Shown: positions 60,868-61,527 of the stretch, one piece after another | Layout: each line of letters begins with the position of its first letter | Numbering within the stretch: the stretch's first letter is position 1 | Assembly (NCBI RefSeq): GCF_013315695.1 | Contig: NZ_CP054353.1 | Reading direction: 5' to 3' (one strand) | DNA from: Escherichia coli | GTDB lineage: Bacteria > Pseudomonadota > Gammaproteobacteria > Enterobacterales > Enterobacteriaceae | DNA: 64,000 nucleotides | Notes under the pieces: model-generated | Databases searched by the model: none | Told to the model about the DNA's origin: nothing | What the model saw: the letters and a program-made list of their open reading frames with translations, nothing else | Program-made: the position numbers and the translations under genes

Positions 60868-61527
60868 CTATACGTTTTGCCAGAAGGCCGATAGCCGCGG
60901 CCAGGTGAGTGATTCCGTTGAGGGCAACAATAATTGCGCCCCGGTTAAGCCTGCGCCGATCCCCACCGAGCGCATACCGCTGGCGTTAATGGCGTCAATG
61001 CCCGCCTGTGCATCTTCAATGCCGATACATGCCTGCGGCGGCACGCCCAGCCCGGCACAGGCGGCGAGAAAGATTTCCGGGTCCGGTTTCGAGTTTTTAA
61101 GTTGGGAAGCATCCGCGCAGAAGGTGAAAAACTCGCGCAGCTCCAGCGCCGCTAAAATCGTCGGCGCATTCAGGGAGACAGAAGCCAGCCCAACCGGGAT
61201 CTGCTGTGCACGGAGATCTGCCAGCAAATTGCGAATGCCGGGCAGCACAGCATTAACCGTCAGTTCGCGCAATGAATGGACGTAGAGCAGATTTTTGCGA
61301 TACGCCAGTTGCGCCCTCTCCTGCGGGTTAAAGTCGCCCTCTTTGCCCCCGTGTTGCAGAATGCGCCGCAGAGACTCATCGCGGCTGATCCCTTTTAGAG
61401 ATTCGTTAAACTGCGCATCAATGCTGATGCCAATTTCAGCGGCAATCTGCTGCCACGCCTGGAAATGCAGATGCGCGGTATCGGTGATTACTCAATCCAG
61501 ATCGAAAATTACCCCTTGCAGTTTCAT
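60868..61527 (-). pseudogene. ycjU: Beta-phosphoglucomutase gene inactivated by a nonsense codon at codon 12
   Basis: Reverse strand from ATG 61525-61527 reads MKLQGVIFDLD then TGA (61492-61494) where the HAD motif DxDGV needs Gly; the frame then continues [11 protein letters not shown]... to 60868. ORF track shows only the distal 134 aa from an internal TTG. Confidence 0.75.

Follow-up and report, generated by a model that had tools for sequence, protein, structure and literature searches.

A premature stop codon in pgmB/ycjU of an Escherichia coli clone carrying a ycjO-to-ycjT deletion

The interrupted pgmB/ycjU gene

The window analysed here, the whole stretch of 64,000 nucleotides, carries part of the ycj operon on its minus strand: the 3′ part of ycjN (63299–64000), which encodes a substrate-binding protein and runs off the window end; an in-frame ycjO′–′ycjT fusion ORF of 584 aa (61524–63278); the full ancestral frame of pgmB/ycjU, 219 codons and a stop, now a pseudogene (60868–61527); an intact ycjV, which encodes an ABC transporter ATPase of 360 aa and starts 13 nt past the pgmB stop (59772–60854); and an intact ompG, the last gene of the operon (58822–59727). 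An 801-nt region was matched in 4,988 of 5,426 complete genomes, and the window is from E. coli.

The native ATG of pgmB (61527–61525, minus strand) overlaps the TGA of the upstream ORF, the ycjO′–′ycjT fusion, in the sequence ATGA, and a perfect AGGAGG Shine-Dalgarno sequence (61532–61537, minus strand) lies 4 nt 5′ of it. From this ATG the minus strand reads ATG AAA CTG CAA GGG GTA ATT TTC GAT CTG GAT TGA GTA ATC ACC: eleven sense codons (61495–61527), which encode MKLQGVIFDLD, are followed directly by an in-frame TGA at codon 12 (61494–61492), and past the TGA the frame is open as far as the normal stop at 60868. The sequence and coordinates of this stop agree exactly with a preliminary description of the window, which had placed it in ycjU.

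The protein obtained by restoring glycine at codon 12 bears out that gene name: it is 219 aa long, reaches 273.5 bits on TIGR01990, the NCBIfam equivalog model for beta-phosphoglucomutase (cutoff 189.4), and is identical at 216 of its 219 positions to PDB 4G9B, the solved beta-phosphoglucomutase of E. coli K-12. As the restored protein exceeds the TIGR01990 cutoff, the DNA is the pgmB gene by descent. In an alignment with solved beta-phosphoglucomutases, the first three share the block FDLDGVITDTA without a difference, and Asp9 and Asp11 align, with an offset, with Asp8 and Asp10 of Lactococcus lactis beta-PGM; they correspond to the nucleophile and the general acid/base of HAD motif I. The lost glycine, Gly12, directly follows Asp9-Leu-Asp11 and so adjoins the HAD nucleophile motif, as had been pointed out from the bare sequence. 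The peptide MKLQGVIFDLD is the only remaining piece that bears Asp9 and Asp11: HAD motif I (DxDG) is broken, the TGA splitting Asp9-Leu-Asp11 off the cap domain and the other parts of the core, and the catalytic motif is lost from any possible product. Because motif I is not on the same polypeptide as the core, the gene is a pseudogene of the beta-phosphoglucomutase family and not a functional member of it, and its sequence predicts no conversion of beta-glucose-1-phosphate to glucose-6-phosphate.

Comparison with related strains reveals both the mutation and its ancestral state. The 660-nt gene of the window differs from the closest intact alleles, those of MS 21-1, AF10 and AF14, at a single position, nt 34, where these have G and the window has T; the remaining 659 nt are the same as in the intact sister-strain allele (WP_000775778.1). 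The G at nt 34 is also present in the more distant outgroup TCM3e1. Codon 12 is thus GGA in both outgroups (MS 21-1 and TCM3e1) and in both sister strains (AF10 and AF14), and the change is a derived G-to-T transversion that turns Gly12 into a stop; on the plus strand, base 61494 is A in the window and C in the ancestral allele. The preliminary description had proposed a single GGA-to-TGA substitution in an otherwise intact frame and had suggested a comparison with sister strains; that comparison upholds the proposal in full. The in-frame stop is absent from orthologues and the ancestral sense codon is identifiable, as befits a nonsense pseudogene. A lone difference from the intact allele, without further decay of the gene, fits the recent inactivation that had been suspected.

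The allele is not peculiar to one genome. With a 61-nt query centred on codon 12, 4,868 complete E. coli genomes were matched, of which two were exact, MSB1_4I from a rectal swab in Australia and AF3 from a blood culture in the UK, where the count is one of exact 61-mers and a TGA allele with an additional flanking SNP escapes it; each 98.4% match among those listed is one base off. Over the 64 kb, the window differs from MSB1_4I by three SNPs (one at 59946) and a 362-bp indel, and from AF3 by eight SNPs, that at 62617 among them. Three assemblies that are independent of one another, with origins on two or more continents, therefore have the T at codon 12, and the exact PGAP-called product of the TGA allele is recorded on 155 public contigs. 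Resequencing of base 61494 had been suggested as a check, a C in place of the A being the intact state; the independent assemblies, all with the same base, in effect supply it. The stop in pgmB is a real, inherited, recent and lineage-specific knockout, and a whole sublineage, which has spread, is already fixed for the TGA allele.

The ycjO-to-ycjT deletion and the remaining operon

The preliminary description did not include the context in which the stop occurs: the pathway had already been struck by an older deletion of 5,175 bp upstream, running from ycjO to ycjT. In an alignment with the intact MS 21-1 operon, the junction falls at 63054–63055 (63055/63054). The deletion is exactly 5,175 bp, or 1,725 codons, and in-frame: it removes the 3′ part, and thus most, of ycjO, the whole of ycjP, ycjQ, ycjR and ycjS, and the 5′ third of ycjT (YcjT residues 1–246), and joins codon 74 of ycjO to codon 247 of ycjT via a hybrid ATC. 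The fusion ORF therefore consists of YcjO residues 1–74, the hybrid Ile codon and YcjT residues 247–755. The same alignment showed an imperfect similarity of 14 nt at the breakpoint but no exact microhomology. PGAP flags each half of the fusion as a partial pseudogene. With 309 bits, the fusion ORF falls short of the 838-bit cutoff of the GH65 model NF010380 and covers profile positions 279–751 of 756 only; the full-length architecture of a GH65 kojibiose phosphorylase, with N-terminal, catalytic (alpha/alpha)6 and C-terminal domains, is incomplete in it. Given this loss of domains, we infer that the YcjO′–′YcjT fusion is inactive.

The junction is found in four of the 5,426 complete genomes, MSB1_4I, AF3, AF10 and AF14. 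Two of these four carry the TGA, MSB1_4I and AF3; AF10 and AF14 have the deletion but GGA at codon 12. The stop is thus nested in the deletion clade, and as the deletion is common to GGA and TGA strains, parsimony on the four complete genomes and the window indicates that the deletion came first and the stop later within the clade. The exact fusion protein is recorded on 544 public contigs, a figure that comes from a different annotation source than the 155 contigs of the TGA product, so that no ratio is to be drawn from the two.

The two subclades have since accumulated different changes in what is left of the operon. On the branch with the TGA, the derived substitutions are L423Q in ycjN and N255K in ompG. 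The sister subclade of AF10 and AF14 has G306E in ycjN and L44P in the ycjO remnant and, with pgmB intact, a nonsense mutation in ycjM, E364* (GAA to TAA; locus L005 position 1806 in AF10, outside the window), a second lesion that struck the deleted operon independently of the pgmB stop.

According to PMC6599011, the whole operon from ycjM to ompG is repressed by YcjW, kojibiose releases YcjW from DNA in vitro, and ChIP-seq peaks of YcjW lie upstream of ycjM and “between ycjT and ycjU”. An intact YcjW operator, TGGGACCGCTACCA, is present in the window at 61544–61557 (minus strand), within the 3′ end of ycjT and 17 nt 5′ of the pgmB ATG; it is the sole match in the window with at most two mismatches, where 0.23 would be expected by chance. 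The same 14-mer occurs 13 nt before the ATG of ycjM and lies at the exact centre of LL58, the published ycjM EMSA probe (PMC6599011 supplement). The ycjW repressor gene and both operators are intact in the lineage. The stop was also considered as a hit on the internal operator, and this was rejected: the mutation lies 50 nt downstream of the operator (61557–61544), which it leaves intact. A scan of 60700–61900 with the sigma-70 consensus found no promoter-like site. The early stop in pgmB may have a polar effect on ycjV downstream.

Several other features of the window were observed in the same strain comparisons. Three IS1 copies are present in the 64 kb, at 6593–7365, 16784–17551 and 25134–25901. 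At the first, the window lacks roughly 9 kb that are present in AF10, comprising most of a DUF2773 gene, pdxI and a 5.9-kb gene for a pectate-lyase-fold protein, which suggests an IS1-mediated deletion. The second lies beside the ompN remnant (17552–18357), and here the window strain lacks 362 bp relative to both MSB1_4I and AF3, a loss that takes the ompN start and first 328 nt and leaves this porin gene 5′-truncated; AF10 instead has an IS1 insertion in ompN, along with an IS3 insertion of its own in ynbA and an IS1-truncated recE. Other pseudogenes lie nearby in the window's lineage, besides the damage by IS1 and IS3. The integrase gene intR of a Rac-like prophage (32146–33379, plus strand) is frameshifted around 32711 in the window, MSB1_4I and AF3 by a 2-bp difference from AF10, where it is intact, and is thus a pseudogene specific to the subclade with the pgmB stop. 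The diguanylate cyclase gene dgcM (37584–38816, plus strand) has four nonsynonymous and no synonymous differences among very close strains (G48S, S133R and A146D vs AF10; A146D and P273L vs AF3), a tight cluster that is unusual in the window and may be a mark of selection acting on the regulation of biofilm or curli. The genes sitABCD for an iron/manganese transporter (about 19517–22966, plus strand) lie between uspF and the Rac-like prophage remains, by the MSB1_4I annotation of the identical region.

Alternative readings of the stop

Apart from a true loss of function, the stop might be an error, might be circumvented during translation, or might have been favoured by selection. The chance of a sequencing or assembly error in one genome is negligible: three assemblies that differ elsewhere share the T, which excludes it, and 155 public contigs encode the product, so that error is refuted by independent data. 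Restart of translation past the stop, to give a functional but N-terminally shortened enzyme, is what the RefSeq annotation implies, as PGAP calls in MSB1_4I and AF3 a 206-aa CDS (60868–61488, minus strand; WP_225385537.1) that starts with ATC at codon 14, is named beta-phosphoglucomutase, carries no pseudogene flag in RefSeq and, at 245 bits, clears the TIGR01990 cutoff of 189.4. However, this product covers profile positions 12–187 only and lacks the DxD motif, i.e. Asp9 and Asp11 of the invariant FDLDGVITDTA block; translation very rarely starts at ATC, and the 20 nt upstream of this one contain no 4-nt match to AGGAGG; and the first in-frame ATG, GTG or TTG past the stop is the TTG at 61272, codon 86. 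HAD phosphotransferases are not known to work without the motif I aspartate nucleophile. With the motif lost and no canonical start before codon 86, an active restart enzyme is extremely improbable and was rejected. Recoding of the UGA, by selenocysteine insertion or by read-through with Trp, to give a full-length active enzyme is hardly credible either. Of the three stop codons, UGA is read through most readily in E. coli, which makes a small fraction of full-length G12W protein plausible, but residue 12 is the invariant glycine of the catalytic loop, where Trp is unlikely to be tolerated. An Rfam search of 61200–61700 returned no family even at E ≤ 10, and the predicted fold of the 68 nt that begin 3 nt 5′ of the UGA is no more stable than that of shuffled sequence (z = −0.55), so that no SECIS-like stem-loop is apparent; moreover, the sequence 3′ of the UGA is identical in the GGA sister strains, and thus no SECIS has evolved there. 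Selenocysteine insertion and other recoding were rejected on the lack of an Rfam match and of a significant fold.

That the stop was selected rather than neutral, through polarity or through the loss of a harmful activity, we regard as unlikely. On the first account, about 620 nt of untranslated mRNA would be exposed to Rho, lowering expression of ycjV and of ompG, which encodes a large-pore porin; in its strongest form, in which the stop was selected as a cis “off switch” and Rho-dependent polarity silences ycjV and ompG in a bloodstream-associated clone, this account is very unlikely. On the second, a useless or harmful mutase or phosphatase activity of the HAD family would have been removed in an extraintestinal (blood-culture) clone. 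Selection would agree with the intercontinental spread of a sublineage in which the allele is fixed and with the presence of the allele on 155 contigs, with the retention of the internal YcjW operator before pgmB, by which pgmB, ycjV and ompG are possibly still regulated as a unit, and with the amino-acid changes in ompG and ycjN on the same branch. Yet hitch-hiking in a successful clone accounts for the spread equally well, and the sister subclade has spread with GGA; the stop has a single origin, with no signal of convergence at the site; YcjW is intact and the operon expected to be repressed anyway; and no promoter-like site was found in 60700–61900 by consensus scan. Nor is an excess of substitutions demonstrated. 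Between the window and AF10, the operon (5.2 kb) has five nonsynonymous or nonsense differences and no synonymous one, and the other ~52 kb have 14 nonsynonymous, 6 synonymous and 5 non-coding differences; the resulting N:S of 5:0 against a background of 14:6 has the expected direction but is not significant (Fisher p = 0.29), and neither is the SNP density of the operon, with 5 observed vs 2.5 expected (Poisson p = 0.11).

Loss of pgmB, probably after disruption of its pathway

We consider it very probable that a genuine, vertically inherited nonsense mutation inactivates pgmB/ycjU and that it arose after the 5,175-bp deletion had disabled the pathway of the enzyme. As far as the pathway is covered in PMC11543891 and PMC6599011, PgmB converts beta-glucose-1-phosphate, the product of the kojibiose phosphorylase YcjT, to glucose-6-phosphate; YcjN, YcjO, YcjP and YcjV form the predicted ABC importer (PMC11543891). 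YcjT without its first 246 residues would supply no beta-glucose-1-phosphate, leaving PgmB without substrate, and with the permease genes ycjO and ycjP truncated or deleted, entry of the inducer into the cell would probably be nil. Since the supplier of the substrate and the permease are gone and ycjW is intact, PgmB would find nothing to act on and the operon probably stays off. Selection to keep pgmB would then be little or none, and the gene could be lost by chance. In strains with the TGA, ribosomes would load at the intact AGGAGG and ATG, make MKLQGVIFDLD and terminate; Asp9 and Asp11 would thereby be parted from the cap domain and the HAD core, and phosphomutase action from any product would be impossible.

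As neither the N:S ratio nor the SNP density demonstrates relaxed selection on the operon by itself, the case for neutral decay rests on the logic of the pathway and on two independent nonsense mutations, those in pgmB and ycjM, of which the one in ycjM is no more than suggestive of relaxed constraint. On these grounds, we infer a silent operon and a selectively neutral loss of pgmB; a neutral second hit is the most likely account of the stop. The deletion is no prerequisite for such a loss, as pgmB has also been lost in lineages with an intact ycjT (L014 and L015, considered below).

The annotation of the gene conceals its state. The 206-aa remnant clears the cutoff of the family HMM despite the missing catalytic aspartates, which is why RefSeq/PGAP names WP_225385537.1 a beta-phosphoglucomutase; the entry is an annotation artefact, and metabolic reconstructions of TGA strains would wrongly credit them with the enzyme. 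The biological weight of the stop is small, and its value is that of a lineage marker: the TGA and the 63055/63054 junction are diagnostic markers for the clone and subclade.

The closest known counterpart is YcjU/PgmB of K-12 (4G9B; TIGR01990; HAD superfamily subfamily IA): this is the same gene, it occupies an identical place in the operon, and its start likewise overlaps the end of ycjT by 4 nt (ATGA). In contrast to K-12, codon 12 is a stop in the window, severing the DxD nucleophile motif, and the partner gene ycjT upstream is truncated. Other pseudogene alleles of pgmB, in unrelated E. coli lineages, represent independent losses of function of the same gene at positions different from that of G12*: a 1-bp deletion at nt 218 (L013 and L014) and Q73* (L015), with ycjT split in L013 and full-length in L014 and L015. 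The pgmB gene region is, in addition, missing from about 8% of complete genomes. The gene is dispensable and repeatedly lost, and pgmB G12* is an ordinary secondary pseudogene.

Secondary (“domino”) gene decay after disruption of a pathway is a feature of host-restricted, clonally expanding Enterobacteria such as Shigella. Although the scale is small here, one operon in one E. coli clone, the locus resembles Shigella-type decay in two respects: a primary deletion was followed by separate point knockouts in each daughter lineage (pgmB G12* in one, ycjM E364* in the other), and active IS1 and IS3 elements harm nearby genes in the window's lineage. The ycj operon of this clone thus provides a small, clean example of stepwise operon decay, in which a deletion orphaned genes that were then knocked out by point mutations arising independently in the daughter lineages.
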